Assembly (NCBI GenBank): GCA_903944345.1
Contig: CAJARJ010000019.1
Span: 7,480-71,479, forward strand
Direction of reading: 5' to 3'
Length of the DNA stretch: 64,000 nt
From: Candidatus Omnitrophota bacterium
GTDB lineage: Bacteria > Omnitrophota > Gorgyraeia > Zapsychrales > Fredricksoniimonadaceae
Both the position numbers and the translations under genes were made by a program. The notes below the pieces were generated by a model. The model had not been told where the DNA came from and did no database searches. It was given only the letters and a program-made list of their open reading frames with translations. Position 1 is the stretch's first letter; every line of letters starts with the position of its first letter. This document shows positions 8,491 to 41,066 of the stretch, piece after piece.

Positions 8491-8513
8491 AAAAGGACAT
8501 CTTCCTTAAGGCC

Positions 8514-9335: not shown

Positions 9336-9547
9336 GATGCGTCCCTTCTTACAATTAATCCTTGTTCTTTAGCCCGAATTTTTCTTTAATGAGGGAATCC
9401 AGATAACCCCCCAACCTTTTCTCATTTTCGTGACTGAAAAACTGCCTTCAACCATTTTCCTCTGTTAGGCTAAGCATTCTTCCCTGAGCGCTAGCAGTCC
9501 ACCTTTAAAGCATTCCTTGATCCTTTTAAAATATGGCAATAAACGTT

Positions 9548-22552: not shown

Positions 22553-22629
22553 GACCCCATCGTCTAGTCTGGTCAGGACACAAGCTTTTCAAGCTTGGAA
22601 CGCGGGTTCAAATCCCGCTGGGGTCGCCA
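22553..22629 (+). tRNA. tRNA-Glu (anticodon TTC), CCA encoded
   Basis: GACCCCATCGTCTAGTCTGGTCAGGACACAAGCTTTTCAAGCTTGGAACGCGGGTTCAAATCCCGCTGGGGTCGCCA. Acceptor GACCCCA/TGGGGTC; anticodon loop TTTTCAA; T-loop TTCAAAT. Confidence 0.92.
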
Positions 22630-25704: not shown

Positions 25705-27378
25705 ATGTTGGCGTCAATAAATAGAAAATCGGTTGTTTTTGACCGCTCACTCAGGCTTGTTTTGATTCTTTGCCTTTTATCGTTTACTTCTGTCACGGTT
25801 CATGGGGCGGGAAATTTTGATCAGGTTCAGATTCTTAAAGGTGACATGGTCAAGATAGACACCAAAGCGCTAACTAAAGTGTCGATTACGGATCCTGAAA
25901 TTGCAGATATTAGTGGAGCCTCCGCAGAAGGCATCACTGTTATTGGAAAAGAAACAGGCCAGACTGTGTTATTTATCTGGGACGGCGATGTCAAGACAAC
26001 TACGATTGTTCAGGTAGTTCCTGAAAATACTGCATACCTTAAGAGTCGCGCCGAAAGCCTTTTGTTTAGTGCCAACATTCATGAGGTGATAGTTTCAGAA
26101 AGTCCTTATGAAGGTCGGATTGTTTTGACCGGAGAGTTGACGGCCGAAAAAAGAAACATTATGGAGAAGGCGCTTGAGCCATTATTTGGTAAGTATTTGA
26201 ATTTGGTAGGTGATGCGGTCAGTGAGGATATGATACAGATCGATATGCAGGTTACGGATTTATCGACAACTTTGACTAAAGAGCTGGGGGTTGATTGGTT
26301 TTCCGGTACGCAGTCAGGTGATGGAGCCACAGGGAAAGTAACTGGAACTATTGGTGATGGTCTAAATCCCATGGCGGTCGAGGTTCCTCCTGATCAAGCC
26401 GGAACATTTAATGATATGTTCAAGATAGGAAACTTCTATCGTTCAACTGATAGTGCGTTAATAGCCAAAATTAATGCCTTAATTATAGAAGGTCGGGCTC
26501 GCGTTTTGTCCAAGCCGAGGCTTGTTGTCATGAGCGGGAAGCAGGCAACGTTTCTTGTTGGTGGAGAAATCCCGATCAGAACGACAACAACTAATGCCAG
26601 TGGTGGGTCAACGCAGGAAAATGTCGAATACAAAGAGTATGGGGTGAGCTTGATGATGACCCCAACGATTCGTAACGACAAAGTCGACTTGTTGATGAAT
26701 GTTGAAATTAGTGATATTGATGCGGCCAATTCGAGCGGAGATGATGTAGCTTTTACGACTCGCACCGCCCAAACGCAGCTTTTTTTGGATGATCGACAGA
26801 CTATCGTTCTGGCCGGCCTGATACGCAAGCAGGATGGGGTTACCGTCCGAAAAGTTCCTTTGTTGGGAAGTATTCCAGTTCTGGGGATGCTTTTTCGTAG
26901 CAAAAAGACTCCTGCTAATGTCGGGGACAGTGAACTAGTTATCTCCCTGACACCGACGATTATTGCATCAGCCAATAAGAATAAAGGGGCGCGCGCCTTT
27001 CAGGCAAAAAAAGGTGGTTCTGCGAATTTTGAGCGGGATCTGTCTTCTTCATACGTTTCGGTGTCTCAAGCGTTGGCCCCGTATGCCAGACAGGTTCAGG
27101 AAAAGATATCTGCATTTATTGTTTTTCCTTATGAGGCGCGTAGAAATGGCTGGGAGGGTGTCGTAAAATTGGCTCTCATTATCAAACGCGACGGCTCCTT
27201 GAGGGATGCTTTTATTCAGGAATCTTCGGGATATGAAATTTTTGATTTGGATGCTCTTAATACAGCGCGGGGGCTTTCCCCATATTTTCCAATCCCGGAT
27301 GATATTCGCAGTGACGAAGTTTCGGTAACAATACCAATAGCCTATAGATTTGATTCTGTTAATCAAAAAGTTCAATAA
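25705..27378 (+). CDS. cpaC: Tad-type secretin (CpaC/RcpA) with a C-terminal TonB-C-like domain
   Basis: 557 aa; signal peptide; secretin C-domain (LVVMSGKQATFLVGGEIPIRTTTTNASGG...VPLLGSIPVLGMLFRSKKT...SELVISLTPTII); then an extra ~100 aa FIVFPYEARRNGWEGVVKLALIIKRDGSLRDAFIQESSGYEIFDLDALNTARGLSPYFPIP matching the TonB C-terminal fold consensus. Confidence 0.88.
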   Translation: MLASINRKSVVFDRSLRLVLILCLLSFTSVTVHGAGNFDQVQILKGDMVKIDTKALTKVSITDPEIADISGASAEGITVIGKETGQTVLFIWDGDVKTTTIVQVVPENTAYLKSRAESLLFSANIHEVIVSESPYEGRIVLTGELTAEKRNIMEKALEPLFGKYLNLVGDAVSEDMIQIDMQVTDLSTTLTKELGVDWFSGTQSGDGATGKVTGTIGDGLNPMAVEVPPDQAGTFNDMFKIGNFYRSTDSALIAKINALIIEGRARVLSKPRLVVMSGKQATFLVGGEIPIRTTTTNASGGSTQENVEYKEYGVSLMMTPTIRNDKVDLLMNVEISDIDAANSSGDDVAFTTRTAQTQLFLDDRQTIVLAGLIRKQDGVTVRKVPLLGSIPVLGMLFRSKKTPANVGDSELVISLTPTIIASANKNKGARAFQAKKGGSANFERDLSSSYVSVSQALAPYARQVQEKISAFIVFPYEARRNGWEGVVKLALIIKRDGSLRDAFIQESSGYEIFDLDALNTARGLSPYFPIPDDIRSDEVSVTIPIAYRFDSVNQKVQ

Positions 27379-27396: not shown

Positions 27397-29571
27397 ATGG
27401 CAGCTAAAACGATAACAGTATTTAGTAATAAAGGCGGCGTCGGGAAGACATTTCTCTGCGTTAATAGTGCCTGTTCGCTGGCTTTGTCTGGTAAAAAAGT
27501 TCTTCTGATTGATCTGGATTTCCAGGCAGGACAGGATATGGCGCGCATGCTGAATCTTGTTCCGCGCAGCTCTATTGTTGAATCTTTTTCTCAGTTGGAG
27601 AATCAGGAAGATCCTGCGGTCATCAAGAAATTCGTCATGACTCACGCCATTGGCGTAGATTTTATTTCTGCAGTTTTAAGTTATCGGGAAATGGGGCAGA
27701 TTACTCCAGATAATATACGACCGTTTCTGAGAAAGGCTCAGCAGCTTTACGATTTCATCATTATTGATGTTGGAAAATCATTTACCGAAGTCCTGCTTTC
27801 AGTGTTGGACATGTCCAATCTTATTTTGCTTGCCGTTACTCCTGATATTTTAGCGGTATACCAGATCAAATGGGGCCTAGAGTTGTTGCAAAGCCAGCAT
27901 TTTCCGATGAAAATGATTAAAGCCGTTTTAAATCGTTCGGAAAGTCAAGGCGGAGTTGTGTGGCAGGAAGTTAAGGCGGCGTTAGGTTGCGATATTCTTG
28001 CCAGAATCCCATCAGACGGAAAAGTTGTCGGAAGTGCTCTTAATCGTGGAATTCCATGTGTGGTCGACAGTCCGCGGGCGCGTGTTTCTATGGCATTTTC
28101 GGATCTGGCAGAAATGCTGTGCAACGAAAACAATTATGTGCAGACCACGGAAGTCCTAAGGGTTCGCATAGTCGATGATAAAAAGCAGGATAATTTCTGG
28201 GAAAAGTTTGGTATTACGGAAAAAGCTTCCGGTTCACCAATAAAATATTCAAGCCAAAAAGATGAAGACGAAGGGGTTCGGCTTAAAAAAAGGATTCATG
28301 CAAAACTTGTTGATCGCATGAACCTCAAATCGATAACACCGGAAGCATTGGCAGACCCCGAGCAGGCGGCTAATATTAAGAAACAGGCTGAACGAATTAT
28401 TGTGGATCTCATCACTGAGGAGGCTGGAGCGATTGTTTCTTCTCATCAGGAAAGATCCAAGCTTGTTACCGAAATAGTTAATGAGGCGCTTGGGCTTGGT
28501 CCGTTGGAGGATTTGCTGGCAGATAATGCTATTACGGATATCATGGTTAATAACAAGGATGAGATCTATATTGAGAAATCCGGAAAAATTTTCCTGACCG
28601 GGCGAAAATTTATTTCAGATCAGCAGGTTCGCTCGACAATCGATCGCATTATTGCACCCTTAGGAAGGCGTATTGACGAATCTGTGCCAATGGTGGATGC
28701 TCGTTTGCCGGATGGATCGCGTGTCAATGCTATCATTCCTCCGCTTTCTTTGCGGGGCCCGATGATCACAATTCGTAAGTTTGCCCAGGATCGGTATACG
28801 GTAGAAGATCTTTTACAGCGTTTTCATAGCCTTTCGCGTCCGATGGCGGATTTTATTCAGGCCGCTGTTGTTAGCCGCAAGAATATGCTTGTGTCCGGCG
28901 GGACGGGTTCAGGAAAAACGACCCTCCTTAATATTATTTCAAATAATATTCCGGATGGTGAAAGAATTATTACACTGGAAGATGCGGCCGAGCTCAAGCT
29001 GATCAAGCCGCACTGGGCGCGCCTTGAGTCGAGGCCCCCGAACGTTGAGGGTAAAGGAGCGATTACGATAAGGGATCTTTTTATCAATACCCTGCGTATG
29101 CGGCCAGATCGAATTATTATTGGTGAGTGCCGTGGCCCGGAAGTTCTGGACATGCTACAGGCCATGAATACTGGCCACGATGGATCGCTAACAACCATCC
29201 ATGCGAATTCCACCAGAGATGCCGTAACCCGGCTCAATTCCCTCATTCTTTTAAGTGGAGTAGAGCTACCGTTACAAGCGGTTTATGACATGATTGCGTC
29301 GGCGTTGGATATTATTGTTCAAGTTGCCCGCTTATCGGATGGATCCCGTAAAATTATAGGGATTTCCGAATTAACCGGACGCATTGTGAACGGACTGCCT
29401 GAACTTAAAGATATTTTCGAATTTCGTCATACGGGAATAGATAAAGATGGCCGGGTGATGGGGGATTTTGTGCCAACAGGATATGTACCCGAGTGCTACG
29501 ATGATTTTGTTAAACGCGGGGTTGCTCTCTCTAAAGAAATATTTTCTATAGACCACGTTGTTTCCGCCTGA
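27397..29571 (+). CDS. tadA: Fused TadZ/CpaE-like (MinD/ParA ATPase domain) and TadA/CpaF secretion ATPase
   Basis: 724 aa. N-terminal ~250 aa has the deviant Walker A VFSNKGGVGKTFLCVNSACSLALSGKKVLLIDLD (MinD/ParA/CpaE). A K/E-rich linker follows. C-terminal ~450 aa is a CpaF/VirB11-family ATPase (Walker A LVSGGTGSGKTTLLN, IGECRGPE, His-box TIHANS). Confidence 0.85.
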   Translation: MAAKTITVFSNKGGVGKTFLCVNSACSLALSGKKVLLIDLDFQAGQDMARMLNLVPRSSIVESFSQLENQEDPAVIKKFVMTHAIGVDFISAVLSYREMGQITPDNIRPFLRKAQQLYDFIIIDVGKSFTEVLLSVLDMSNLILLAVTPDILAVYQIKWGLELLQSQHFPMKMIKAVLNRSESQGGVVWQEVKAALGCDILARIPSDGKVVGSALNRGIPCVVDSPRARVSMAFSDLAEMLCNENNYVQTTEVLRVRIVDDKKQDNFWEKFGITEKASGSPIKYSSQKDEDEGVRLKKRIHAKLVDRMNLKSITPEALADPEQAANIKKQAERIIVDLITEEAGAIVSSHQERSKLVTEIVNEALGLGPLEDLLADNAITDIMVNNKDEIYIEKSGKIFLTGRKFISDQQVRSTIDRIIAPLGRRIDESVPMVDARLPDGSRVNAIIPPLSLRGPMITIRKFAQDRYTVEDLLQRFHSLSRPMADFIQAAVVSRKNMLVSGGTGSGKTTLLNIISNNIPDGERIITLEDAAELKLIKPHWARLESRPPNVEGKGAITIRDLFINTLRMRPDRIIIGECRGPEVLDMLQAMNTGHDGSLTTIHANSTRDAVTRLNSLILLSGVELPLQAVYDMIASALDIIVQVARLSDGSRKIIGISELTGRIVNGLPELKDIFEFRHTGIDKDGRVMGDFVPTGYVPECYDDFVKRGVALSKEIFSIDHVVSA

Positions 29572-30027: not shown

Positions 30028-31833
30028 ATGGGAGTAACTTACAAATTAAAATCAGAAGTGGTTGATTTTATAGTAGAGAGCAAGCGGAGTGTCCCCTCGC
30101 TAAGTTGCCGGAAGCTGGTTGATCTTGTTCGGCAGCGTTTCTCGATGGATGTTTCGAAATCTTCGATTAATGCAGTTCTTAAAGAGTCTGACTTGAGCAG
30201 CCCAGTTGGACGCCATCCCAAGGGGGTTCCGCTTAAGAATTTTTTTATTCCCAAAGAGAAAAAAGAAAGCTTATTGCAGCAGGTTCAGCCATTTCTTGTT
30301 CCGGAAACTGTTGAGGTTGAGCCGTTGATGGAATTAAGGGAGGATTTTATCCAGCAGTTACCCCCGGAATTACCGCAAGTTGCGCAAAGCGACCAGCCTT
30401 TGAGGCTGGCGCCGGATATCATGAAGCTTGGCTTAGTAGAAGATGTTGCGCCAGAAGACTTTATATTACCGGAAAAGCCTTCAAATTTGAGCGACCCGGA
30501 GCCGGAACAAATTTGGAACATTTCAGATAATTTGCTATTTGAAAAAGGCGGAGCAATTTTTTTTGCTGCCATGTGGTGGCAACGGGCAAGATCTCCGGTG
30601 ATTGGTCAGGCTGTATGGCGCAGTGGTATTTTTGATGGCGGGCGTTTTCTTGAGACTGACTTTATACAATGGCTGGAAGGTCTCTTTTTGTTTCAAGCGA
30701 TTTTCGAAAAAAAGCAAGAGGACTTCTCGCGCGAAGAAATGCGAACGCTTACGGCGCTTTTTGCACACAAACAAACCGATCTTCCTGTGCCCTTAATAAG
30801 GAAGGAAGCATCAGCCGAGGAAAACAGGCGGTTGGCTTGGGACATTGAATCGGCATTGGCAGAAGCTTTTAGCATGGTTAGTTGTTATGAGCTGATCACC
30901 AGATCGGGTCGCAAAGTGCTGATGAATGCTTTTTTAGCCGGTTTTTTGCAGAATTTGCAGGAGGCAGGAAATTCTAGTCTTCCATTATTTTTTGCAATTG
31001 AGCGGGTTGCAGACCGTTTGGTGAATAATATTGAGCCATTGACGCTGCTGTATGGCGCTGGTCAAGATCCTTTTTCGCCATTGTTTGCTGAATACTGGGA
31101 TTTATTGACCGGAGAAACGCAAGATCCGATAGATAGAGTACTGGTTCATATGGTGGATGGCCGGGTTTTCCCGATGTTTGAACGTTTGGCGGCGATCAGT
31201 CGTTCGGTTGTTTTAATTGGGCCGGATCGGGAACAGGTTCTATCGGGCATTGATTTCGGGATTATTGCTGATGGCACAGCGTTTCACTGTGCTTTTACAG
31301 AAAGGACAGCTTCTTATTGCAAAGGGCTTGCAACTATTGCTGGAAAGAAAATTTATGCTTTTTGGGTGAGAGGGCTAGATCAGTCAGAACAGAAAATAAT
31401 ATTGACCAATATTTCTGCCAGTGCTTGTACTGATAATGAGATTGTGGCCCTTTTGTTCAGGACTTATGCACAGCAGCCGGTAACGGATATTTCGCAAAAG
31501 CTTCATCCATTGGAAAATCGGCCATTTTTAGTGGAGAAGCAAGGGAATTTGACCACAATTTTTTATACTCTTTATGAGTATCTGCATCGGGAGCTTGTAG
31601 CCAGTGTATTTCCCGTTCTTAGTCAGCTGGCACTTGATGAATTCAGAAATAATGTTTACACCTTACCGGCGCATATTATTAATCAGCCGGGGGCCTTGCT
31701 GGTTCGACTGCAAGCTGAACCCGGACATCCTTTTTTTGATGCCTTGGTTGAGGCGGCCAGATGGATTAATGCCCAGGACATTCGCGATCAACAAGGGCGC
31801 AGGCTGTATCTTTCCGTAGCTTCTTCTAAATAA
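30028..31833 (+). CDS. Hypothetical 601-aa protein with an HTH-like N-terminus
   Basis: Long ORF with protein-like composition; N-terminal ~50 aa (VVDFIVESKRSVPSLSCRKLVDLVRQRFSMDVSKSSINAVLKE) resembles a DNA-binding HTH; remainder unrecognised. Preceded by the palindrome TGTCCACTCTGGACA (29984-29998). Confidence 0.55.
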   Translation: MGVTYKLKSEVVDFIVESKRSVPSLSCRKLVDLVRQRFSMDVSKSSINAVLKESDLSSPVGRHPKGVPLKNFFIPKEKKESLLQQVQPFLVPETVEVEPLMELREDFIQQLPPELPQVAQSDQPLRLAPDIMKLGLVEDVAPEDFILPEKPSNLSDPEPEQIWNISDNLLFEKGGAIFFAAMWWQRARSPVIGQAVWRSGIFDGGRFLETDFIQWLEGLFLFQAIFEKKQEDFSREEMRTLTALFAHKQTDLPVPLIRKEASAEENRRLAWDIESALAEAFSMVSCYELITRSGRKVLMNAFLAGFLQNLQEAGNSSLPLFFAIERVADRLVNNIEPLTLLYGAGQDPFSPLFAEYWDLLTGETQDPIDRVLVHMVDGRVFPMFERLAAISRSVVLIGPDREQVLSGIDFGIIADGTAFHCAFTERTASYCKGLATIAGKKIYAFWVRGLDQSEQKIILTNISASACTDNEIVALLFRTYAQQPVTDISQKLHPLENRPFLVEKQGNLTTIFYTLYEYLHRELVASVFPVLSQLALDEFRNNVYTLPAHIINQPGALLVRLQAEPGHPFFDALVEAARWINAQDIRDQQGRRLYLSVASSK

Positions 31834-31898
31834 AGCACGTTCAGTGGGTTGACGGGAAAAGCTGATATGCTATACTTCAAATGTCTTTAAGAGATAAG

Positions 31899-31930: not shown

Positions 31931-32111
31931 GCTCTTTTAGGTTCCGCCTTAGGGCGGTACATGATCGCTTGGCTGTTATTAAAAGGTCAAGCGGCCTTTT
32001 TCGGAGTGATCCGCAAAAGGATATAAGCCCGGACATAGGGGCCGTTTCCGTTTCGTGTCTGTTTGGAACGAAACCCGGGCGTAACTTCTTTCAAACGCAG
32101 GTGACGCAACG

Positions 32112-32264
32112 ATGAGATGGGTAACAAACCGCAATGCTCAAAATCTTATTGAATATACCCTTGTCGTTGCCGTTGTTTCGGCTGCAGTTGTGGCCATGAG
32201 CACCTACGTGTTTCGCGCTGTTCAGGCGGCACAGAAAGAAATTATAAGGGAAGCCCAGGAATAG
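32112..32264 (+). CDS. flp: Flp-family pilin (50 aa)
   Basis: MRWVTNRNAQNLIEYTLVVAVVSAAVVAMSTYVFRAVQAAQKEIIREAQE: short basic leader, then EY at the Flp processing position and a hydrophobic helix. Below the ORF-track length cutoff. Confidence 0.7.
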   Translation: MRWVTNRNAQNLIEYTLVVAVVSAAVVAMSTYVFRAVQAAQKEIIREAQE

Positions 32265-32296
32265 TTTGTTCTCATCCGGATTTTTAAGGAGGATGT

Positions 32297-32503
32297 ATGA
32301 AGTTAAGGAATAAAAGAGGTCAAGGAACACTCGAGTATGTGATCTTGGTCACAGCAGTAATCGTTGTAGTTATTTATTTTCTTATGGGAACAGGTCAGGG
32401 GTCATTCCAGAACACAATGAATGGTGCATTAAACGAGGCCACTGAAGGAATGTCCACGATGTCCGGTCGTTTTGATGCGGCGTTTGCTCCTCCGGCCCCT
32501 TGA
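32297..32503 (+). CDS. flp: Flp-family pilin
   Basis: MKLRNKRGQGTLEYVILVTAVIVVVIYFLMG...; RBS AAGGAGG upstream. Confidence 0.85.
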   Translation: MKLRNKRGQGTLEYVILVTAVIVVVIYFLMGTGQGSFQNTMNGALNEATEGMSTMSGRFDAAFAPPAP

Positions 32504-32554
32504 GGTTGTGAAGAGTTGACAGAAAGAACAGAATGGCTCAACTGGAGGTAAATC

Positions 32555-32947
32555 ATGTTAAAGGTGTTAAGAAATAAAAAGGCTCAGAATACGGCGGAAT
32601 ACGCCATTCTGATCGCTTTGGTTGTTGGCGCTGTGGTCGCCATGCAGTCTTACGTTCAGCGCGGACTGCAGGCTAGAACACGAGGAACTTCATTGTATAT
32701 GAGAGACGAGATCTCAAATGCGATGAAAGCGGCCGATGCCAGTATGGCCGCCAGTATCGGTAATACCGGGCAGTACAATCCGTATTATCTGGATCAGCAG
32801 TATGAAACGACTCGCGATAGTGAAGAGACTGCAACTGCGGCTCCTTCCAATATCGTGTTGACGGGAACGTCAAATAAGTCTCGTGCTGCCGCCGGATATG
32901 ATGCGACTCTATATAATGGGGATGTAGGCGCAACGGGTCAGGATTAA
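32555..32947 (+). CDS. flp: Flp-family pilin with extended C-terminal domain
   Basis: MLKVLRNKKAQNTAEYAILIALVVGAVVAMQSYVQRGL...; paralog of the gene at 33522. Confidence 0.85.
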   Translation: MLKVLRNKKAQNTAEYAILIALVVGAVVAMQSYVQRGLQARTRGTSLYMRDEISNAMKAADASMAASIGNTGQYNPYYLDQQYETTRDSEETATAAPSNIVLTGTSNKSRAAAGYDATLYNGDVGATGQD

Positions 32948-32976
32948 AAAGCAGGTATTAAACAGGAGAGAAAATA

Positions 32977-33303
32977 ATGAGTATAAGAACAAAAAACAAT
33001 AAGGGACAAACGACCCTGGAGTATATCATCCTGATCGTTATTATCATTGCCGCCCTGTTGACTATACAAGGGTATCTCAAACGCGGCATTCAGGGGCGTC
33101 TGCGCAGTTCAGCGGACGATATTGGTGAGCAGTATGAATCGACAGCCACTAATCATACAAGAACAACGCGAGTTGCCTCTGTTACCAATGAGCGAACGAC
33201 ACAGGCCGGGGAATTCACCGGGTTTATTGGCCAGGAAAACAAGACAGTTGACGAATCTTATAACACGGCTAATGCAGAAATTGTGTACATGCCGGCGCCC
33301 TAA
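32977..33303 (+). CDS. flp: Flp-family pilin with extended C-terminal domain
   Basis: MSIRTKNNKGQTTLEYIILIVIIIAALLTIQGYLKRGIQGRLRSSADDIGEQYE...; paralog of the genes at 33916 and 35058. Confidence 0.85.
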   Translation: MSIRTKNNKGQTTLEYIILIVIIIAALLTIQGYLKRGIQGRLRSSADDIGEQYESTATNHTRTTRVASVTNERTTQAGEFTGFIGQENKTVDESYNTANAEIVYMPAP

Positions 33304-33318
33304 TCAGGAGAGAAACGC

Positions 33319-33501
33319 ATGAAAACAAACAAAGGTCAAAGTACTCTTGAATATGTACTGTTAGTGACAGCAGTTCTGGTGGTCATTATAGGTTGGGTGG
33401 CAGGGCCGGCATCTCCTTTCAAGCAGGCGGTCAACAATACCTTGTATGACGCATCAAATCAAATTGAGTCCATGTCCCAGCGCATTATGGCGGGGAAATA
33501 G
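33319..33501 (+). CDS. flp: Flp-family pilin
   Basis: MKTNKGQSTLEYVLLVTAVLVVIIGWVAGP...; paralog of the gene at 32297. Confidence 0.85.
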   Translation: MKTNKGQSTLEYVLLVTAVLVVIIGWVAGPASPFKQAVNNTLYDASNQIESMSQRIMAGK

Positions 33502-33521
33502 TTGTATAACGAGGAGGATCT

Positions 33522-33887
33522 ATGTTAAAAAGAACTCGCGATCGCAAAGGCCAGAATACGGCGGAATACGCGATCCTGATTGCGCTGGTTGTTGGAGCGG
33601 TTATTGCGATGCAGACTTACGTGCAGCGCGCCTTGAACGGACGGGTTTTTGATACGACCAAATATATGGCCGATAAAACCGCAGAAGTTACAGGAAACGG
33701 GTATCAGTATGAGCCGTATTATACAAATTCGGATTATCAGGTGGATAAAAACACTGGAGAAATCCGTAATCAGTATAATGCCGAGATTGGGATGTATTCG
33801 ACAGCTGAAACATTAAGAGCTGGTAATGAGGTGTCGGATTTTAACCGAGATGGCCTTACGGATTACGGTGACGTAGTTGTTCCGTAA
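33522..33887 (+). CDS. flp: Flp-family pilin with extended C-terminal domain
   Basis: MLKRTRDRKGQNTAEYAILIALVVGAVIAMQTYVQRAL...; paralog of the gene at 32555. Confidence 0.85.
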   Translation: MLKRTRDRKGQNTAEYAILIALVVGAVIAMQTYVQRALNGRVFDTTKYMADKTAEVTGNGYQYEPYYTNSDYQVDKNTGEIRNQYNAEIGMYSTAETLRAGNEVSDFNRDGLTDYGDVVVP

Positions 33888-33915
33888 TTTAATGGAAATT
33901 ATCAGGAGGCATTGC

Positions 33916-34245
33916 ATGAGAATCAATCTAAAAGGAAAAAACGGGCAAACAACCCTTGAGTACGCGATTTTGGTTATGATTATTATTGGCGCTTTGTTGA
34001 CGATTCAGGCCTACATCAAGCGCGGTATTCAGGGGCGGGTCAAAAGTTCGGCGGATGATATCGGCGAGCAATACGATCCGGGTAACACAAATTATGTTAA
34101 GGTAACTAATTCGATATCCAATACCCGCCAGACGTTTAATTCCGGTATTTCACGTTCGGAGTTAACGGCGGCGGATACGGTGGATGTTTCGACCTTCCAG
34201 GAGATAAGTAATCTGGAGTCGGGTGGTTATTGGGGAACACCGTAA
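33916..34245 (+). CDS. flp: Flp-family pilin with extended C-terminal domain
   Basis: From the internal ATG with RBS AGGAGG 6 nt upstream: MRINLKGKNGQTTLEYAILVMIIIGALLTIQAYIKRGIQGRVKSSADDIGEQYD... The track start at 33877 is probably too long. Confidence 0.82.
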   Translation: MRINLKGKNGQTTLEYAILVMIIIGALLTIQAYIKRGIQGRVKSSADDIGEQYDPGNTNYVKVTNSISNTRQTFNSGISRSELTAADTVDVSTFQEISNLESGGYWGTP

Positions 34246-34275
34246 TACGGTTTGGCTTTAGAGCCTTCAGGCTTT

Positions 34276-34318
34276 AAACATCAATGCCGGTTCCGTGACG
34301 GAACCGGCATTGATGTTT
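34276..34318 (+). repeat. Perfect 20-bp inverted repeat with 3-nt loop (hairpin or attenuator) inside the pilin array
   Basis: AAACATCAATGCCGGTTCCG-tga-CGGAACCGGCATTGATGTTT. A smaller hairpin AGCC-ttca-GGCT lies at 34262-34273. Located 30 nt after the stop of the 33916 pilin gene. Confidence 0.8.
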
Positions 34319-34330
34319 AGAAAGAAAAAT

Positions 34331-34681
34331 ATGATTAAGATGTTTCACGGACAACGCGGTCAGAGTGTGGCAACAGAATATGTTGTCATTTTTTTTCTGG
34401 CGATTGCCGCGGTGGCTGCAATGGCCATGTATGTCCGGCGCGCGTTTCAGGGGCGGGTTTATGATGCGAGAATGTATACAATGCAGAAAGCTGCCCAGGC
34501 TTTGGGAGAGTCGGTTCCTTTTGAGTATGAGCCATATTATGCCCAGACGGATAGCAATCTGGCCAAAAGAGCGGATGAAATGACGAGCATTAGTGGTGCT
34601 GAGGTTGTTCTGCGGACGTCTTTCGAAGCTACCACCACGAATAGTCATAGCGTGCAAAGGCAACCGGACAGAGGAATTTAG
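34331..34681 (+). CDS. Flp-like pilin, divergent (start uncertain)
   Basis: MIKMFHGQRGQSVATEYVVIFFLAIAAVAAMAMYVRRAFQGRVYDA...; G-x4-EY motif plus hydrophobic helix. Upstream in-frame ATGs at 34295 and 34313 lie inside the hairpin. Confidence 0.7.
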   Translation: MIKMFHGQRGQSVATEYVVIFFLAIAAVAAMAMYVRRAFQGRVYDARMYTMQKAAQALGESVPFEYEPYYAQTDSNLAKRADEMTSISGAEVVLRTSFEATTTNSHSVQRQPDRGI

Positions 34682-34707
34682 TCGAAATTGCTGTCGGGGG
34701 AAGCGAG

Positions 34708-35061
34708 ATGTTAAAAAAGAAACGTGCCCAGTCACTGGCTGAATACTCGATGTTAACCAGTATTATTGTGGCGGCTATTGTGGTTGTTTATCCGCTGGTC
34801 AAGCGCGGGCACCAGAGTTTGATTAAAGTGGTGGCTGATCAGGTTGGAAGCCAGAGGGATGCTGAGCAGGACTTTTCGCGAGGCTCTTCTTATCTGGCCT
34901 GTTCGGAAACTCGATATAACAGCCGCATTGGTGATGTAGTTCAGGAGGATGGGTACATAGACGGATCGGGAACTGCGCATTTTGCTTATATCCGAACTTA
35001 TGACCAGTCAACCAACAGTTCGAGTATTGAGATTACAAACATGGAGCATGATACGCAATGA
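34708..35061 (+). CDS. Flp-like pilin, divergent
   Basis: MLKKKRAQSLAEYSMLTSIIVAAIVVVYPLVKRGHQ... Confidence 0.72.
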   Translation: MLKKKRAQSLAEYSMLTSIIVAAIVVVYPLVKRGHQSLIKVVADQVGSQRDAEQDFSRGSSYLACSETRYNSRIGDVVQEDGYIDGSGTAHFAYIRTYDQSTNSSSIEITNMEHDTQ

Positions 35062-35390
35062 TCAGGCGCACAAATCAAGACGGACAGACAATTCTTGAGT
35101 ATTCGATCATCATGATTATTGTGATAGCTACTCTTATCACTATGCAGGGCTATATCAAGCGCGGCTTTCAGGGACGCTGGAAATCGGCAGTGGACGATCT
35201 TGGGGAGCAGTATGACCCCCGCGCGGTTTGCAGTACGATTGTTTATTCACAGTCCTCTAATTCAGTTGCCAGTGTTCGCGTGATGGATCATACATCCCAG
35301 AGTGGAATATCGGGCAAGTATACTATACGCAACGATCAGGTGCAGTCTTCAGAGACTAAAACCGGGACAACGGAAGTTCGCCGTCCCTAG
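35058..35390 (+). CDS. flp: Flp-family pilin with extended C-terminal domain
   Basis: MIRRTNQDGQTILEYSIIMIIVIATLITMQGYIKRGFQGRWKSAVDDLGEQYDP...; third member of the KGQTTLEY..KRGIQGR subfamily; ATGA overlap with the preceding gene. Confidence 0.85.
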   Translation: MIRRTNQDGQTILEYSIIMIIVIATLITMQGYIKRGFQGRWKSAVDDLGEQYDPRAVCSTIVYSQSSNSVASVRVMDHTSQSGISGKYTIRNDQVQSSETKTGTTEVRRP

Positions 35391-35402: not shown

Positions 35403-36659
35403 ATGGGGGATGTTCGTAAAAGTTCAGACTGGCGCAAGGCTCAGGCGACCATTGAAATAGCAGCTTTTGGGGCTATTGTTATTTTTATTATTGGATTGAT
35501 TGTTCAGCAAGGATACAGTTCTACCCAACAGCAGAATATACAGCTACAGGCGCTAAGGATAGCGTTGCTAAAGTCTTATGAGAGTTCGCTGCAGGGCAGT
35601 TCGGCCCGTAATTCGGGGAGTTTTATGCTGATTGAGGATCGGCTTTCTCCGGCGGTGGGGAAATATGGCCCGCTGGATCGGCAGGTTTTTATGTCGAGTG
35701 GATCCGGTGTTATGAGCTATTTGTTGTTTCGTCCGATTGATTGGGAAGATTTGCCCAGAGACCTTCCGCTAACGGATGTTAGCGTTAACGGGCAGGATTT
35801 TGTTTTCAGAACAGCTGCTGCCGTCAAGTATACGATTAATCCAGGCTCAATTGTTGCCAATGATAGCATCACCATGCAATCGGGATCTGATCCTGATGCG
35901 GCCAGATTAAGCGAGGAAGGACTATGGGCCTGGCAGAGCATCGTCAAGTATAGCGAAGATTGGACCGGAAGTGCGGACTGTTCCAATATGCGCCGGAATG
36001 CAGCTAAAGAGAAGCCCTGTTCGGCTGCTGTGCAGGACAAGATTCCTTGGAAATGGAAAAAGGTTTCCTGGGGAGAGGCGGCTTCCGAGATTAATCTGGA
36101 TGACGGGGTTTACCCGAGTTACGATATTGATGGCGACCGTAGCGAAGAAACTCTTTACAAGATGAGCGGCAATACGGTATGGGTGATTGATTGGAACGCA
36201 GGTGATGTTGACAACAGTGCGGATGAATGGGAGTTTGCGGACGAAGAAGATATCCCCGGACTCAAAGACACAATGGAAATTGTCTCCATGCCGCTTTATC
36301 CCGGTGATCGTAACACATTGGAGATCAGGGAAAACGGAGCTTCCAGCCGAGCGACCAGCCTCAGCAGTAAAAGCCAGATGGATATTATTACCCGCAAGTT
36401 TGTGATGAATCCGCGCATGATCGGAGGAGGGACGCTTTGCTCAGGCGGCACACCTACCCAAGGATCAGTCGAAGCCTGCTGTCAGGGAGAGGGGTGTTGC
36501 TCTTCAGCTGACAATGCTTATAAAACCTGTTTTCAGTATGTTGACGGTTATGGCAGGAAGGTTCTTTATATTCGTAGCCGCATTCAAGATGAACGAAAGA
36601 GCGGATGGACGACTCCGGTGGTTCCGGCGGATATTGGAGATCGGACGATTTTCAAGTAA
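35403..36659 (+). CDS. TadE-like pseudopilin with a large Cys-containing C-terminal domain
   Basis: 418 aa; N-terminus KAQATIEIAAFGAIVIFIIGLIV resembles the TadE/TadF pseudopilin motif; 8 Cys including the cluster EACCQGEGCC. Confidence 0.65.
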   Translation: MGDVRKSSDWRKAQATIEIAAFGAIVIFIIGLIVQQGYSSTQQQNIQLQALRIALLKSYESSLQGSSARNSGSFMLIEDRLSPAVGKYGPLDRQVFMSSGSGVMSYLLFRPIDWEDLPRDLPLTDVSVNGQDFVFRTAAAVKYTINPGSIVANDSITMQSGSDPDAARLSEEGLWAWQSIVKYSEDWTGSADCSNMRRNAAKEKPCSAAVQDKIPWKWKKVSWGEAASEINLDDGVYPSYDIDGDRSEETLYKMSGNTVWVIDWNAGDVDNSADEWEFADEEDIPGLKDTMEIVSMPLYPGDRNTLEIRENGASSRATSLSSKSQMDIITRKFVMNPRMIGGGTLCSGGTPTQGSVEACCQGEGCCSSADNAYKTCFQYVDGYGRKVLYIRSRIQDERKSGWTTPVVPADIGDRTIFK

Positions 36660-36682: not shown

Positions 36683-36925
36683 ATGCTGGATCATATTCCG
36701 AAATCAAACCATTCGTGCGTCGGGCAGAGCACTGTGGAGTTCTGTTTCGGACTTTTTATTGTGTTGTTGCTTTTTTTTGCCCTGGTTCAGGCTGTACGGT
36801 GGGTGGTTCTGGAGAAGATCGAGTTGCGAGTTGATTTTGAACGTTCCTTGCAGACAGGCAGTGGAGCGTATCAGCAGCTGAATCCGCACTTTCATCGATT
36901 GCGGCCTTTGGACATGGAATATTAG
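36683..36925 (+). CDS. TadE-like pseudopilin (80 aa)
   Basis: GQSTVEFCFGLFIVLLLFFALVQ TadE-type N-terminal motif. Confidence 0.65.
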   Translation: MLDHIPKSNHSCVGQSTVEFCFGLFIVLLLFFALVQAVRWVVLEKIELRVDFERSLQTGSGAYQQLNPHFHRLRPLDMEY

Positions 36926-36944: not shown

Positions 36945-39773
36945 GTGGTTTGTTTTATGAAAAAAATAATGATGGATAACAGGGGGCAGATGGCGCTGTT
37001 GATGGTTTTGGTTGCTGCCATAGCGCTGGTGTGCCTGGCCATGACTCTGAATCTCACCCGGGTGGCGGCCACAAAAACGTTGACCATGATTGCAGCCCAT
37101 CAGGCATCTTCTTACACAGCTTCGCAAATGGCCAGCTATGCTCAGATGCAGAAAGAAACACAACTCGGAGGAAAGCAGAAAGTTTGTAAGAACACAGGAC
37201 TGCTGTCTTCTTTGTTGACATTTATTATTGTTCTGGTGATTGCGGTGATTGTGACGGTAGCTTCATATGGAACTGCGGGTCCTTCGATGTGGACTGTTGT
37301 TGCTGCGTGGGCAGCTGTAGCTATTTCGGCGGCCTCGGTGGTGTTGCAGGCTACGGTTATTCAGCCCGGATTGACCAAAATGTGGAATAAATTGCAGATG
37401 ACGATAGCAACGACGGAGGATCGTTTTCTGGAGATGGGACTGCAGGTGGCGCTTTCCGGAGCGGTGAGCGATAGTGAGCAAATTCCGGATTATTATGATT
37501 ATAATATGAACGGGGTGATATGGGATGGAGATATAAATTCTGATGAGCAGGATCAGATTTCCCGATTTTCTTATTACTACACGAAACATTTGCTGGATGC
37601 TTCGGCGGAATATGCTTCTTCAGGTGGCGTGGCCGGCATTAATCAGATGAAAACCATTTTAGGGGAGATTCGGGAGTCCTTTGGCCTTGAGATTGATCAT
37701 GGTTGTTGTGCAGACAAGGGGTATCACCCCGCTTTATGTAATCCATGTTGTGTCAGCAAGGAGTTGCGTCCGGGGTCCTGTCACCCGGAGATAGCTGATC
37801 CTGAGCTTTTTCCGGATGTCCCCTCCGAATGTATGGCTGGGGTCATGCCCTACTATCCGTTGAATTACGATCCTCTTTTTTGTAAGCGTATCCCTGATTC
37901 TTCCGTACCTGAGAGTGATCCCAAAAATAATACCATGGCTGCGGTGATGGGGATGGATGATGGAAATATGTCCATGACCAGGGTCTTTCCTAATCAGGCG
38001 TACTCAAGAGAAGCTTTGGACTCGATCAGAAACATGTTTCGTGGTGAGGATAGTGACGGCAAGCTGTTTCCGTTGTTATGGATGAATGCCGACGGCGCTC
38101 CTGAAACGTATAATCTTCGGGCCTCCGATATTACGGAGGCGTCGGCTAATTGTCATTGGTGTTCGGCGGATGGAGGGTTACCCAAGTGTGACAATGCGGG
38201 CAGTAATTATCATTATTGGAGAAATCCGTACACTGGGGCGGCTTTTACCCAGTTGGATCTGGGGGATCCGGTTTGTTCCGGGGACGGTTGCTGCGTTAAC
38301 AGACTTGTTCAGACAAGCGGTTCTTTACATGGCTTGCAAATGGACAAGGTTCAGGGTCTGGAAAGTGTCAGGAATTTCTCCGGACATGAAAGTTTTTTTG
38401 AAGAAGATCCTCCGGATGCAGATTGTCCCGGTAGTAGTGGTTTATGGCGCAAAGGATCAGACTTGTACTGTTCTTCGACCATTCCCTACTATGCCAATTG
38501 TTCCAAAGTTCAGGGCATGAGTTGTCAGGAAGAATATTCCGAAGATTCATGTGAGTGCAGTGAGTCCTTGAGGAAGGATATCTGGCGGGATGATGATCTG
38601 GATGATTTTACCGTCTGGCTGCGACAGGCGGCCACTTTAATTGATAGGTTTATGCAAACCAGCAGTCCGGCCTTGTTTGCCCAGATTGACGATTATTACG
38701 AAGACTTCACCAAACTTGTTGAAGAGTTGAGAGCCAAAAGAGGGCTCATGGAAGGTTGGCGGACGGGCTTTCAGCAGTGGCTGGATCGCACCGATTTCGC
38801 CGAAGGTGGTTTATGGTGCCTTCCAAATGATCCGAACACCTTGGCTATAGATGAGCGTGCCGCAGTGCTGGCTGCAGGACCATATGGTAGTGTTCAGTCT
38901 GTTGTTGCCTGCCTGGATTATAATAAAGATAATGCGGTTAAGCTGCAAACGTGTATTGACAATTCACAGACTTGTGCCAGCGGCCCGCGTCGCCTGGGTC
39001 CGGCCGGAGACCTGGAGTCGAACCAGAAGGCCGCCGTGAATGCCGATATCAAATTCCGCAAACGCTGGGAGTATTTAAGCGGGATTTATAATTTATCGGT
39101 CAGAGTACGCGACAGCCTGACCAGGGCTATTGATACGGTCGATGAATCCAGGTTGAACTCCTTGCTGTCCGCGCTGGAGAGTGTCAAGACGTCCTATGGA
39201 GCAGTCACGGGCAACAATTTTCTTATTTACGGCTGGAAAAGCGGGCAGGGAAAAGGCGGAAAATTGTGGCATGTGGTCAAGGCGGACTTATGGTTACCCA
39301 AGCGTTGTGATGGATTTGACTGTCGGGCTACACGTTTCCCATGGGTAAAAACTTATAAAAAGGGTTCTTTCAAGCGCTGTTACGAGTTATTTTCATATAA
39401 TGGTTGTGTGAAAACACTGGTTAAACGTTATGACGCTTCACCCAGAAGTCTTTATAATGAAAATGCCCAGTTTGGCAGTGGTTTGGCTGTATGGTTTCCT
39501 CGTAACAACAAAAACACAGGAAGCGCGACTATCAACGACGGACTGGATGAGTGTAATCAGGTTGAGTCAGGAGTGCCTTCAGGGGCTTTTATTCTTAGCA
39601 CACAGACCATGAGTTCAGCCCCAGCGGCTTGTCAGAATGCTCTGGCGGGAGCCCTCAGTTCTGCTACAACAGGAAGTGAGCTTTGTGCTGCTTATGAAAT
39701 GGTTGGCAGCGGTTATCAGGTAAGATTTCTGGACTGTAATCAGTGTGGCAGTGTAGATCCACATAATGACTAG
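36945..39773 (+). CDS. TadG-like large pseudopilin / putative pilus tip protein, cysteine-rich (942 aa, ~36 Cys)
   Basis: N-terminus NRGQMALLMVLVAAIALVCLAMTLNLTRVAATKTLTMIAAHQAS matches the TadG N-terminal pattern; remainder is rich in Cys clusters (GCCADKGYHPALCNPCC, CECSES, CNQCG). Confidence 0.7.
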   Translation: MVCFMKKIMMDNRGQMALLMVLVAAIALVCLAMTLNLTRVAATKTLTMIAAHQASSYTASQMASYAQMQKETQLGGKQKVCKNTGLLSSLLTFIIVLVIAVIVTVASYGTAGPSMWTVVAAWAAVAISAASVVLQATVIQPGLTKMWNKLQMTIATTEDRFLEMGLQVALSGAVSDSEQIPDYYDYNMNGVIWDGDINSDEQDQISRFSYYYTKHLLDASAEYASSGGVAGINQMKTILGEIRESFGLEIDHGCCADKGYHPALCNPCCVSKELRPGSCHPEIADPELFPDVPSECMAGVMPYYPLNYDPLFCKRIPDSSVPESDPKNNTMAAVMGMDDGNMSMTRVFPNQAYSREALDSIRNMFRGEDSDGKLFPLLWMNADGAPETYNLRASDITEASANCHWCSADGGLPKCDNAGSNYHYWRNPYTGAAFTQLDLGDPVCSGDGCCVNRLVQTSGSLHGLQMDKVQGLESVRNFSGHESFFEEDPPDADCPGSSGLWRKGSDLYCSSTIPYYANCSKVQGMSCQEEYSEDSCECSESLRKDIWRDDDLDDFTVWLRQAATLIDRFMQTSSPALFAQIDDYYEDFTKLVEELRAKRGLMEGWRTGFQQWLDRTDFAEGGLWCLPNDPNTLAIDERAAVLAAGPYGSVQSVVACLDYNKDNAVKLQTCIDNSQTCASGPRRLGPAGDLESNQKAAVNADIKFRKRWEYLSGIYNLSVRVRDSLTRAIDTVDESRLNSLLSALESVKTSYGAVTGNNFLIYGWKSGQGKGGKLWHVVKADLWLPKRCDGFDCRATRFPWVKTYKKGSFKRCYELFSYNGCVKTLVKRYDASPRSLYNENAQFGSGLAVWFPRNNKNTGSATINDGLDECNQVESGVPSGAFILSTQTMSSAPAACQNALAGALSSATTGSELCAAYEMVGSGYQVRFLDCNQCGSVDPHND

Positions 39774-40219: not shown

Positions 40220-41065
40220 ATGTTAGCGGTCAGTCTGTTTCTGTTTTTTCTTAGCGTGATGATATCTGTTTATTACGTGATTCCTTTTGTTGTTAGAAGG
40301 ATTATTGAGGTCAACAAGAATCGCGCACGCAATTTTGCCCGGGACATGGATCGAACCATGTTAACCCAGGACATTCAAAAAGTTCGGGTTCTTTTTATTA
40401 TCGGACCTTTTGTTTGTGGAGCCGCCGGTTTTTTTCTGGGTGGAGTGATTGGTGTTCTGGTTGGATCAGCGGTCGGTTTTGTGATCCCCAGAACGTATGC
40501 GTCTATCTTGCAGGGTCAGAGACGGGAACAGTTTGAAAAACAACTGGTGGATGCCCTTATGATCATGTCCAGTTCGTTTCGGGGCGGCTTGAGTCTGGTT
40601 CAGTCTATGGAATCGGTAGTTGATGAAATGCCCGATCCTATCCGCCAGGAATTCGGGCTCGTTCTGGGCGAGAACAAGATTGGAGTTCTTTTGGATGACG
40701 CTTTCAATCGACTTTATAAACGTTTGCCGTCACCGCCATTACAGCAAATGATTAGTGCTATTTTGCTGGCACGCGAGACGGGCGGAAATCTGCCGGCTAT
40801 CTTTTCGCGAATTGTGAGCACTATACGTGAACGTCGAAAGATCGAGGATAATCTTAAAGTTCTGACTTTGCAGGGTAAGCTGCAGGCTTTTGTGATGAGC
40901 GGCTTGCCGGTAGGGTTCTTTTTTCTGGTCAATACAACCAATCCCAATTATTTTAAGATCATGACCAATACCGATACGGGGCGCATGCTGTTGGCGGTTT
41001 GTGCGTTTTTATGGGTTCTTGGAACTTTCATGATCATAAAGATCAGTACTATCAAGGAGGTCTGA
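40220..41065 (+). CDS. tadB: Tad pilus inner-membrane platform protein TadB (GspF-like)
   Basis: 281 aa; T2SS-F domain (LYKRLPSPPLQQMISAILLARETGGNLPAIFSRIVSTIRERRKIEDNLKVLTLQGKLQAFVMSGLP). Confidence 0.85.
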   Translation: MLAVSLFLFFLSVMISVYYVIPFVVRRIIEVNKNRARNFARDMDRTMLTQDIQKVRVLFIIGPFVCGAAGFFLGGVIGVLVGSAVGFVIPRTYASILQGQRREQFEKQLVDALMIMSSSFRGGLSLVQSMESVVDEMPDPIRQEFGLVLGENKIGVLLDDAFNRLYKRLPSPPLQQMISAILLARETGGNLPAIFSRIVSTIRERRKIEDNLKVLTLQGKLQAFVMSGLPVGFFFLVNTTNPNYFKIMTNTDTGRMLLAVCAFLWVLGTFMIIKISTIKEV

Positions 41066-41066
41066 C

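Follow-up and report, generated by a model that had tools for sequence, protein, structure and literature searches.

Why should one pilus locus carry what appears to be the same set of three pilin genes twice in a row? The question is raised by a stretch of 64,000 nucleotides (nt) from a Candidatus Omnitrophota bacterium (assembly GCA_903944345.1, contig CAJARJ010000019.1, positions 7,480 to 71,479), referred to here as the window. An initial annotation of this DNA had described a tandem duplication of a cassette made of one short and two long pilin genes, A-B-C. The two triads, A1-B1-C1 and A2-B2-C2, are paralogous pilin cassettes within a Tad locus and represent a real gene-family expansion. 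The doubling is old, both cassettes are functional and are constrained by purifying selection, and other lineages have duplicated the A-B-C triad independently. The six genes are not an isolated unit. They lie within a row of ten Flp/class III signal prepilin genes (32112-35390), which are listed below; L numbers denote related contigs.

32112 to 32264, + strand: p0, a 50-amino-acid (aa) Flp-like prepilin with a mature length of ~41 aa; it matches Flp_Fap (PF04964) at E 5.7e-4, which is under the Pfam cut-off.
32297 to 32503, + strand: A1 of cassette 1, a 68-aa short prepilin with a Class_IIIsignal (PF04021) score of 35.3 bits and an AGGAGG Shine-Dalgarno sequence; orthologues are present in L165, L167, L168, and L170.
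32555 to 32947, + strand: B1 of cassette 1, a 130-aa long prepilin with a Q-Y-x-P-Y-Y motif and 329 homologues.
32977 to 33303, + strand: C1 of cassette 1, a 108-aa long prepilin with a SADDIGEQY motif.
33319 to 33501, + strand: A2 of cassette 2, a 60-aa short prepilin with a Class_IIIsignal score of 24.8 bits; it starts 15 nt past the C1 stop.
33522 to 33887, + strand: B2 of cassette 2, a 121-aa long prepilin with YEPYY.
33916 to 34245, + strand: C2 of cassette 2, a 109-aa long prepilin with SADDIGEQY; AGGAGG precedes the ATG at 33916.
34331 to 34681, + strand: D, a B-like prepilin that keeps YEPYY, has Glu at +6 and not +5, and has a weak Shine-Dalgarno sequence; its start codon is uncertain (34313, 34331, or 34340).
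34708 to 35061, + strand: E, a divergent C-like prepilin (VADQVGSQ) with no Pfam hit.
35058 to 35390, + strand: C3, a C-type prepilin whose start overlaps the E stop (ATGA).

The six cassette genes that had been annotated are all present on the + strand at 32297, 32555, 32977, 33319, 33522, and 33916. Each has an ATG and a Shine-Dalgarno sequence, and the peptides quoted for them were correct. In an all-against-all blastp comparison of the ten pilin-like open reading frames (ORFs), reciprocal best pairs were found in the same order in the two cassettes. The A1-A2 pair is 41% identical over 59 aa (E 8e-13), the B1-B2 pair 43% over 123 aa (E 1e-26), and the C1-C2 pair 61% over 75 aa (E 4e-29). 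The two units are placed head to tail, with 15 nt between C1 and A2. When the two 1-kb units were compared as nucleotides, exactly three collinear hits were obtained, one per gene pair and each at the 5' end. These were 32317-32358 with 33333-33374 for the A pair (76%), 32578-32663 with 33546-33630 for the B pair (84%), and 32998-33137 with 33937-34076 for the C pair (71%). No DNA alignment of the two units was found in the 3' halves or in the intergenic spacers. This comparison had been proposed earlier as a check, and a lack of collinear similarity, which would have refuted the duplication, was not observed. The same contrast, which had been noted from the translations, is seen in the nonsynonymous divergence (dN) of the window paralogues, which is 0.24-0.34 in the N-terminal halves and 0.72-0.81 in the C-terminal halves.

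The alignable part of these genes is mostly the hydrophobic N-terminal helix. It could thus be argued that the similarity is a by-product of hydrophobic signal and anchor sequences, with no common descent of the triad. This explanation can be considered refuted. The best match of each gene is its positional counterpart, and there are type-specific motifs outside the helix, YxPYY in B and KRGIQGR..SADDIGEQY in C. The collinear nucleotide hits and the recurrence of the A-B-C order in dozens of contigs also speak against it.

The array contains further members. The third copy of the third type, which had been placed at 35058, is C3, and it is 40-44% identical to C1 and C2. Genes p0, D, and E had not been included, nor had an 80-aa TadE-like ORF at 36683. 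D is 35% identical to B2 (E 9e-20). All ten prepilins have a basic leader of 6-10 aa, Gly or Ala at -1, Gln at +1, Glu at +5 (+6 in D), Tyr at +6, and a hydrophobic helix. A prepilin motif of the G/XXXXEY type, followed by ~20 hydrophobic residues, was found in every one of the ten ORFs. The position of Glu in D is shared by its orthologues in L165, L167, and L086, where a one-residue insertion also places it at +6 (QSVATEY, QGTASEY, QSMISEY, and QATLPEY). Against the Class_IIIsignal cut-off of 23.7 bits, A1 and A2 score above and C1 just under (23.6 bits); p0 reaches 20.1 bits against the Flp_Fap cut-off of 32.2 bits. B1, B2, and C2 also score under the Pfam cut-off, and D, E, and C3 are without any Pfam hit. 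No NCBIfam family scored above its cut-off for the pilin ORFs. The TadE profile (Pfam PF07811) did not match any of the ten, even at E<=1, and their sizes are 50-130 aa versus ~150-190 aa for TadE/TadF. The mature sizes of p0 (41 aa), A1 (60 aa), and A2 (54 aa) are within the range of small helix-only Tad pilins (about 40-60 aa). The mature B1, B2, C1, and C2 proteins, at 98-120 aa, are outside it, and AlphaFold2 (AF2) predicts a beta hairpin or small sheet after their helix.

The arrangement of these genes in relatives was explored in metagenome contigs that were scanned with a C-type pilin profile; pilins were called and typed with a motif-based caller and blastp. A recurrent array, p0-A-B-C-D-E-C3 followed by a gap of ~1.6 kb and the 80-aa gene, is present in L106, L107, L110, L116, L134, L138, L156, L119, L114, L157, and L141. 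L088 also has this single-cassette array, with D not called. The window has the recurrent array plus one extra A-B-C unit before D. Comparison of copy number, as had been proposed, shows a single A-B-C in most canonical arrays and a second triad in the window and at least five relatives. The full ten-gene array is also found in L165 and L167, the latter being an NCBI metagenome-assembled genome (MAG) labelled Elusimicrobia. L168 has the ten-gene order up to C2, where the contig stops, with all six cassette genes present. L170 and L172 have partial arrays on short contigs that are cut within cassette 2.

The six cassette genes fall into six separate orthologue groups with C-terminal features that are specific to the type. 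The closing residues, for example, are GYD.T.YN..VGA.GQD in B1, Y.P in C1, and YWG in C2. The orthologue clades received neighbour-joining (NJ) bootstraps of 71% (B1), 74% (B2), 86% (A2), 61% (C2), and 82% (C1). D, E, and C3 each form an orthologue clade as well, and C3 is found in all canonical arrays. The ancestral array of the lineage appears to be p0-A-B-C / D-E-C3, in which the D-E-C3 part resembles a derivative of B-C-C that is older still. In L086 there is a lone extra A-type gene (8315-8587) after the hairpin that follows C and before D, giving p0-A-B-C-hairpin-A-D-E-C3. This layout hints at an origin of D-E-C3 as a complete cassette that began with an A gene.

No array member is as conserved as p0. 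It is 55-73% identical to its counterparts in most single-cassette relatives and 47-51% identical in three of them, versus 30-57% for the other array genes. Compared with L168, the proportion of synonymous differences (pS) of p0 is 0.22-0.32, two to three times below that of the adjacent pilin genes (0.56-0.91). This low divergence could result from strong constraint on the codons or mRNA of a major pilin that is highly expressed, or from recent exchange.

When did the second cassette arise? The initial annotation regarded the pattern as duplication followed by diversification. The collinear and paralogous nature of the two cassettes holds, and a lineage-specific, fairly recent event is not supported. 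By the Nei-Gojobori method, pS between the window paralogues is 0.72-0.88 in the N- and C-terminal halves of all three pairs. As synonymous sites are saturated in both halves, the conserved N-termini reflect constraint at the protein level and not recent gene conversion. In NJ trees that include single-cassette genomes, the paralogues are rarely sisters; exclusive pairing was found in 4% of bootstrap replicates for B1+B2, 0% for C1+C2, and 3% for A1+A2. A lineage-specific tandem duplication in situ is therefore not supported by these trees, although the cassettes are collinear and head to tail. The copy must predate several splits from single-cassette lineages, or one cassette was gained laterally.

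The second of these options would make the second cassette a xenologue that was inserted from another Omnitrophota lineage by recombination through conserved 5' pilin homology. The near absence of exclusive sister pairs agrees with this, and the clades differ in where they lean. B1 and C1 lean to single-cassette genes of L122, L141, and L157 (bootstrap 54% and 34%), and A2 and B2 group with genes of L110 and L116 (47% and 17%), which are the nearest relatives by p0, D, E, and C3. Mosaic, recombination-like patterns are also known from the same gene family in L123 and L122. However, these bootstraps (17-54%) are weak and come from short alignments, an old duplication with loss in several lineages yields an identical topology, and no mobile-element genes, repeats, or shift in composition were found flanking the cassette. 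Lateral origin is a possibility to be kept in mind, but a doubtful one.

Selection was judged from close orthologues in L170 and L168 in place of the saturated window paralogues. The comparison of paralogues by halves, which had been suggested earlier, gives the contrast in dN described above; the ratio of nonsynonymous to synonymous divergence (dN/dS) between them is uninformative on positive selection, since dS is undefined or >2. Between the window and L170 (93% nucleotide identity), dN/dS is 0.19-0.29 in the C-terminal halves and 0-0.3 in the N-terminal halves. Between the window and L168, the C-terminal halves of both cassettes have a proportion of nonsynonymous differences (pN) of 0.23-0.32 and a pS of 0.65-0.91, with similar rates in the two cassettes. 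Both cassettes are thus functional and constrained. The proposal that the exposed part had been diversified by selection is not borne out, as the C-terminal dN/dS of the orthologues indicates purifying selection. Pervasive diversifying selection is not supported when judged on halves. In B1, the changes relative to L170 cluster at residues 50-62 and 117-127, which are candidates for locally selected patches.

Another explanation for extra pilin copies is a store for antigenic or phase variation. The Neisseria pilE/pilS genes are such a gene-conversion system, with conserved 5' and variable 3' pilin segments, and silent cassettes could recombine into an expression site here in the same manner. 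Recombination does act within the family, as judged by the contrast in pS between the 5' and 3' parts of the C pair of L123 and the B pair of L122. In the window, every copy is complete, with start codon, Shine-Dalgarno sequence, leader, and stop, and the 5' halves of the pairs are also saturated at synonymous sites. There is no sign of concerted evolution in the window clade; the identity of paralogues within a genome (0.61-0.72) is not above that across genomes (0.63-0.68), and both cassettes are stable among related genomes. A variation store is therefore largely refuted for the window and is very improbable.

Younger duplications of the triad are found elsewhere. In L123, a 703-kb contig (Ga0209824_10000001), positions 7098-9379 contain p0-A-B-C-A-B-C and then three B- or C-type genes (typed B, C, and C3). 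Between the two units, identity is 90-99% in the A gene, the spacers, and the 5' parts of B and C. The C pair has a pS of 0.00 in the first 52 codons, and in the remainder pS is 0.61 and pN is 0.48. The B pair has a pS of 0.34 in the 5' part versus 0.73 in the 3' part, and the B pair of L122 (12-1458) has values of 0.11 and 0.69. Because of this heterogeneity, a single duplication followed by point mutation is excluded for the L123 and L122 pairs. The pattern points to gene conversion in the 5' halves, or to exchanged 3' halves, as a putative cause. These duplications also show that the A-B-C triad behaves as a module, with at least three copying events. In the younger copies, recombination appears to set a homogenised 5' part apart from a divergent 3' part, and the window may represent an old end state of this process.

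The genes that surround the array can indicate which machine the pilins belong to. They make up a complete Tad locus on the + strand, in the order RcpC/CpaB, secretin-TonB_C, TadZ-TadA, a DUF192 protein, the 601-aa protein, the ten pilins, the 418-aa, 80-aa, and 942-aa proteins, and two T2SSF proteins:

24790 to 25701, + strand: RcpC/CpaB, from Pfam.
25705 to 27378, + strand: RcpA-type secretin fused to a C-terminal TonB_C domain, from Pfam (Secretin and T2SS-T3SS_pil_N).
27397 to 29571, + strand: TadZ-like ParA/MinD domain fused to a TadA ATPase, 724 aa, from Pfam (ParA/AAA_31 and T2SSE).
30028 to 31833, + strand: 601-aa protein with no Pfam or NCBIfam match, between the DUF192 protein and the pilin array.
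35403 to 36659, + strand: 418-aa protein with a TadE-like N-terminus (RKA/QATIEI and a hydrophobic helix) and no Pfam or NCBIfam hit; candidate minor pseudopilin.
36683 to 36925, + strand: 80-aa TadE-like small pseudopilin (VG/QSTVEF).
36945 to 39773, + strand: 942-aa protein with a pilin-like N-terminus without Glu5 (NRG/QMALLMVLV) and no Pfam hit.
40220 to 41957, + strand: two T2SSF platform proteins (TadB and TadC), from Pfam.

TadA, TadB/C, an RcpA secretin, RcpC, and TadZ are thus all encoded alongside the prepilins, as is expected of a locus for Tad prepilins. The 601-aa protein has a 638-aa counterpart at the equivalent position in L167, and its position suggests a locus-specific accessory factor or regulator. 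The position of the 418-aa gene is also kept in relatives, where it corresponds to the gap of about 1.6 kb ahead of the 80-aa gene. The 942-aa protein is a candidate for a TadG-like large minor pilin. Among species-representative genomes, the best matches of the fused TadZ-TadA protein are in Omnitrophota MAGs (51-64%), followed by Bdellovibrionales and others at ~40%; the fused form aligns over its full length with proteins of Bdellovibrionales and many other phyla. The named homologues of the B and C pilins come from Omnitrophica/Omnitrophota. L005 and L006 were the closest genome hits, and their contigs end before the pilin array, so they were not used in the array comparison.

Directly downstream of tadC, a giant ORF (42444-63998, + strand) is at least 7,185 codons long at the point where the window ends and is called as 7,963 aa on the source contig. 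Its sole Pfam match is a Peptidase_C39-like segment at residues 201-282, and about 7,000 residues are unmatched. Tad and secretion genes beside giant genes are a known feature of Omnitrophota. On the other side, the first 22,700 nt of the window contain housekeeping genes (pheT, pheS, rplT, infC, thrS, gmk, yicC, parB, parA, yidC, dnaA, dnaN, gyrB, and gyrA), four tRNA genes (6661-7028 on the - strand and 22553-22626 on the + strand), and a 6S RNA (415-568, - strand). The sign of the GC skew switches between 14 and 18 kb, at about 16 kb, and G+C goes down to 35-36% at 10-18 kb. Because parA, parB, yidC, dnaA, dnaN, gyrB, and gyrA lie upstream and the GC skew flips there, the Tad locus must be close to the replication origin.

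How might the array be expressed? Three putative regulatory elements were found on the + strand around the first seven genes:

31849 to 31876, + strand: sigma-70-like promoter (TTGACG, 16 nt, TG-n-TATACT), ~235 nt upstream of p0, by match to the consensus only.
32021 to 32080, + strand: structured leader element with an ATATAA box, P1 (GCCCGG/CCGGGC), and an inner hairpin P2 (GTTTCGT/ACGAAAC), ending 31 nt before the p0 ATG.
34275 to 34319, + strand: perfect palindrome with 22-nt arms and a 1-nt spacer, between C2 and D; as RNA, a terminator or attenuator candidate.

The promoter is the top promoter-like site between 29.5 and 37 kb (10/12 matches, with the TG), and its extended -10 box, TGCTATACTT, is common to L110, L116, L156, and L086 in the alignment. 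The leader element lies within a leader of ~225 nt. Its general form is an ATA(T/A/G)A box, P1, a GAATTC-like box that is degenerate in the window, and P2. Equivalents were found in L165, L168, L110, L105, L106, L107, L138, L156, L134, L089, L095, L126, L119, L091, L098, L159, and L088. The arms were curated by hand, since RNAalifold on a MAFFT alignment, which was out of register, gave no pairs. They are complementary in 18 of the 19 curated leaders (P2 failed in L168) despite many two-sided changes. The P2 arms vary in nearly every lineage and yet pair, and the inner P1 positions alternate between GC, TA, and CG. The element ends 31-38 nt ahead of the p0 start codon in 15 of the 19. A loose descriptor of the element found 14 loci upstream of p0 versus ~0.4 expected; genome-wide it is non-specific, with 568 hits versus 569 in shuffled DNA, and only the positional enrichment is informative. 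Rfam searches of the whole window, and permissive ones on 31.7-35.5 kb, returned no riboswitch or leader family. The only local Rfam "hit", a plant microRNA model on the palindrome, was far under threshold and was rejected. The leader element is thus a candidate for a new cis-regulatory RNA.

For the C2-D junction, a folding energy of -44.7 kcal/mol was calculated. Ten of 15 relatives (L165, L110, L116, L086, L106, L107, L134, L138, L156, and L119) also have a strong hairpin at the equivalent position after the last C gene, mostly with a T-run behind it. This speaks for a first transcription unit of its own that comprises p0 and the triads. The intergenic gaps from p0 to C2 are 15-51 nt, and no + strand promoter-like site and no strong terminator were found between 32264 and 34239. 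Six of the seven genes of this unit, A1 to C2, have an AGGAGG or GGAGG Shine-Dalgarno sequence; those of D and E are weak. From these features, the first unit is probably strongly expressed. The second unit, with D, E, C3, the TadE/F/G-like proteins, and TadB/C, would depend on read-through.

The long pilins differ in predicted structure from the best-known Tad pilins. In the AF2 model of B1, made from the family alignment, there is a helix at residues 3-68 and a beta hairpin at 85-110, with a predicted local distance difference test (pLDDT) score of 74. The corresponding model of C1 has a helix at residues 13-52 and four short strands (pLDDT 62). The Caulobacter Tad pilin is described as helix-only (PMC11067988), and the beta elements in the B1 and C1 models would set the B and C types apart from it. 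The C-type family comprises 1,490 clusters at 50% identity (E<=1e-10). A Foldseek search of the B1 model against PDB gave nothing below E = 1, and the B and C alignment profiles gave only an insignificant N-terminal match to Geopilin and a chance hit to avidin among PDB sequences.

What, then, could the doubled triad be for? The reading that we favour, and hold to be somewhat probable, is that the triads encode co-expressed pilus subunits that share an assembly helix and differ in their exposed C-terminal parts. The gene identities, the collinearity, age, and conservation of the cassettes, purifying selection on them, and the positions of the hairpin and promoter are established. Co-transcription, abundance, incorporation into the filament, and a role in surface recognition are deduced from the DNA. 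According to this reading, the seven genes from p0 to C2 would be transcribed jointly from one promoter with the structured leader. This unit would stop at the very stable hairpin, which may lower the levels of D, E, C3, the TadE/F/G-like proteins, and TadB/C. A prepilin peptidase would cut the basic leader of 6-10 residues after Gly or Ala, and the conserved N-terminal helix with Glu5 would pack into the filament. The C-terminal parts would be exposed, with a small beta unit predicted in B and C, and would be different between the two triads. With the triad doubled, a single machine could thus carry two sets of co-expressed subunits that differ in surface, plausibly to attach to distinct partner or prey surfaces.

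The main rival to this reading is that the A-B-C triads are sets of minor pilins. They would form heterotrimeric priming, adapter, or tip complexes that are interchangeable and widen the range of surfaces or prey, as in the Kil system of Myxococcus. The triad is a three-gene unit in fixed order that duplicates as a unit in several lineages, and p0, as the gene with the highest conservation and the closest resemblance to Flp, could be the sole major pilin. B and C exceed classical Flp in size and have the predicted beta element. The Kil system provides a precedent, with four KilL/M/N triads and the Flp adapters KilK/KilO (PMC12075869), and the likely predatory or epibiotic lifestyle of Omnitrophota, together with the TadZ-TadA fusion in common with Bdellovibrio, fits as well. 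However, TadE/F/G-like tip candidates are encoded separately downstream (35403, 36683, and 36945). A, B, and C are small (60-130 aa), and none has an extra distal domain like that of KilN. They retain Glu5, which is typical of subunits within the filament, none matches Pfam TadE at E<=1, and the ribosome-binding sites of the triad genes are strong. On balance, a tip complex appears rather unlikely.

Several points weigh against the favoured reading of the triads as co-expressed filament subunits. B and C are twice the size of the helix-only Tad major pilins of 40-60 aa, and they could be minor pilins or pseudopilins. The AF2 confidence for the C-terminal part is moderate for B1 (74) and low for C1 (62). 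Co-transcription and abundance are predicted from spacing, Shine-Dalgarno strength, and a hairpin that lacks a clean U-tract in the window. The trees are NJ only, from 58-114 alignment columns, and for the origin of the second cassette both an old copy in situ with later losses and lateral acquisition are possible. No Peptidase_A24 prepilin peptidase (TadV/CpaA) was found among the ORFs scanned in the 64-kb window, and the gene may lie beyond it.

A bolder version can also be proposed. The A-B-C triad could be the repeating block of a new heteropolymeric Tad-like filament of Omnitrophota, with a helix-only subunit, two beta-headed "long Flp" subunits, and p0 as core or adapter. Duplication of whole triads, with later recombination limited to the 3' halves, would then make new pilus surfaces for different hosts or prey, the leader would provide a new RNA control, and the operon would be functionally coupled to the adjacent giant 7,963-aa protein. 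We consider this combination quite unlikely.

Omnitrophota are widespread, uncultured, and ultra-small bacteria that are thought to be predators or parasites, and genomic hints on their attachment to hosts come mainly from Tad pili and giant proteins (PMC10066038; bioRxiv 10.64898/2026.06.07.730766). These studies followed the machinery genes (TadB/C and RcpA), and the pilins were not dissected. The present array has an unusually large pilin complement, with seven genes as the standard and ten in the window, and its ordered triads have been copied repeatedly. It contains two large uncharacterised pilin families, B and C, and a conserved hairpin would divide it into two units of expression. Should the triads determine the pilus surface, their copy number and C-terminal variation could be read as a marker of host range in the phylum. 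The p0, A, B, and C proteins are concrete targets for proteomics and cryo-EM on enrichment cultures. The duplication alone is an ordinary expansion of paralogues of the known Tad/Flp kind. The mosaic younger triad copies in relatives and the conserved structured leader upstream of p0 are more unusual by-products of the analysis.

Similar sets of pilins are known from other systems. Haloferax volcanii has PilA1-6, archaeal pilin paralogues with class III signal peptides that have a common hydrophobic domain and use one assembly machine. The window resembles archaeal PilA sets in that A1 and A2 hit Class_IIIsignal, and near-identical N-terminal domains with divergent C-termini are found in both. 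It differs in having a bacterial Tad machine with an outer-membrane secretin and in the repeated, ordered triads of its genes. Neisseria pilE/pilS resembles the L123 and L122 arrays, where conserved 5' and variable 3' parts and recombination tracts are seen. The window copies, in contrast, are all complete genes of the expressed type with no recent conversion signal.

The closest general model is the Flp/Tad pilus, as represented by Aggregatibacter flp-1/flp-2-tad and Caulobacter pilA-cpa (PMC11067988, PMC6668835). The G/XXXXEY motif with Glu5 and the tiny helical pilins (p0 and A) are shared with it. So are RcpC, an RcpA-type secretin, TadZ, TadA, TadB/C, and TadE/F/G-like proteins in the locus, and a hairpin between the pilin and machinery genes. 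However, the window has ten pilin-like genes versus one or two, and the array is located between tadA and tadB and not at the head of the locus. The B and C types, with 98-120 aa in the mature form and a predicted small beta element, belong to no Pfam family beyond a weak signal-peptide hit. TadZ-TadA and secretin-TonB_C are fused in the window, and no TadV was found nearby within the 64 kb.

Predatory bacteria provide further comparisons. The Kil Tad pilus of Myxococcus xanthus also belongs to a predator-type host and has paralogous three-gene pilin modules in several copies, in which N-terminal helices are conserved and exposed parts are variable, with small Flp-like proteins alongside (PMC12075869). 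The Kil triads consist of homologues of TadE/F/G, among which KilN is large and bears a distal domain, and they are at scattered loci and weakly expressed (PMC12075869). The window triads, in contrast, encode small Flp-like proteins, and they follow one another in a single putative operon whose ribosome-binding sites are strong. The TadE/F/G-like genes of the window are additional and single-copy, with the 418- and 942-aa proteins encoded separately, so that the triads themselves do not have the Kil composition of TadE/F/G homologues and a large subunit. Bdellovibrio bacteriovorus, with flp1-flp4, also has multiple Flp pilins in an obligate predator, and a fused tadZA (PMC5430801; bioRxiv 10.64898/2026.07.08.737194); the TadB/C proteins of Omnitrophota group with those of Bdellovibrionales (PMC10066038). 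The Bdellovibrio flp set was described in 2017 as the largest type IVb complement known (PMC5430801). It consists of four flp genes, two in the operon and two elsewhere, whereas the lineage of the window has seven to ten pilin genes of three length classes in one array.

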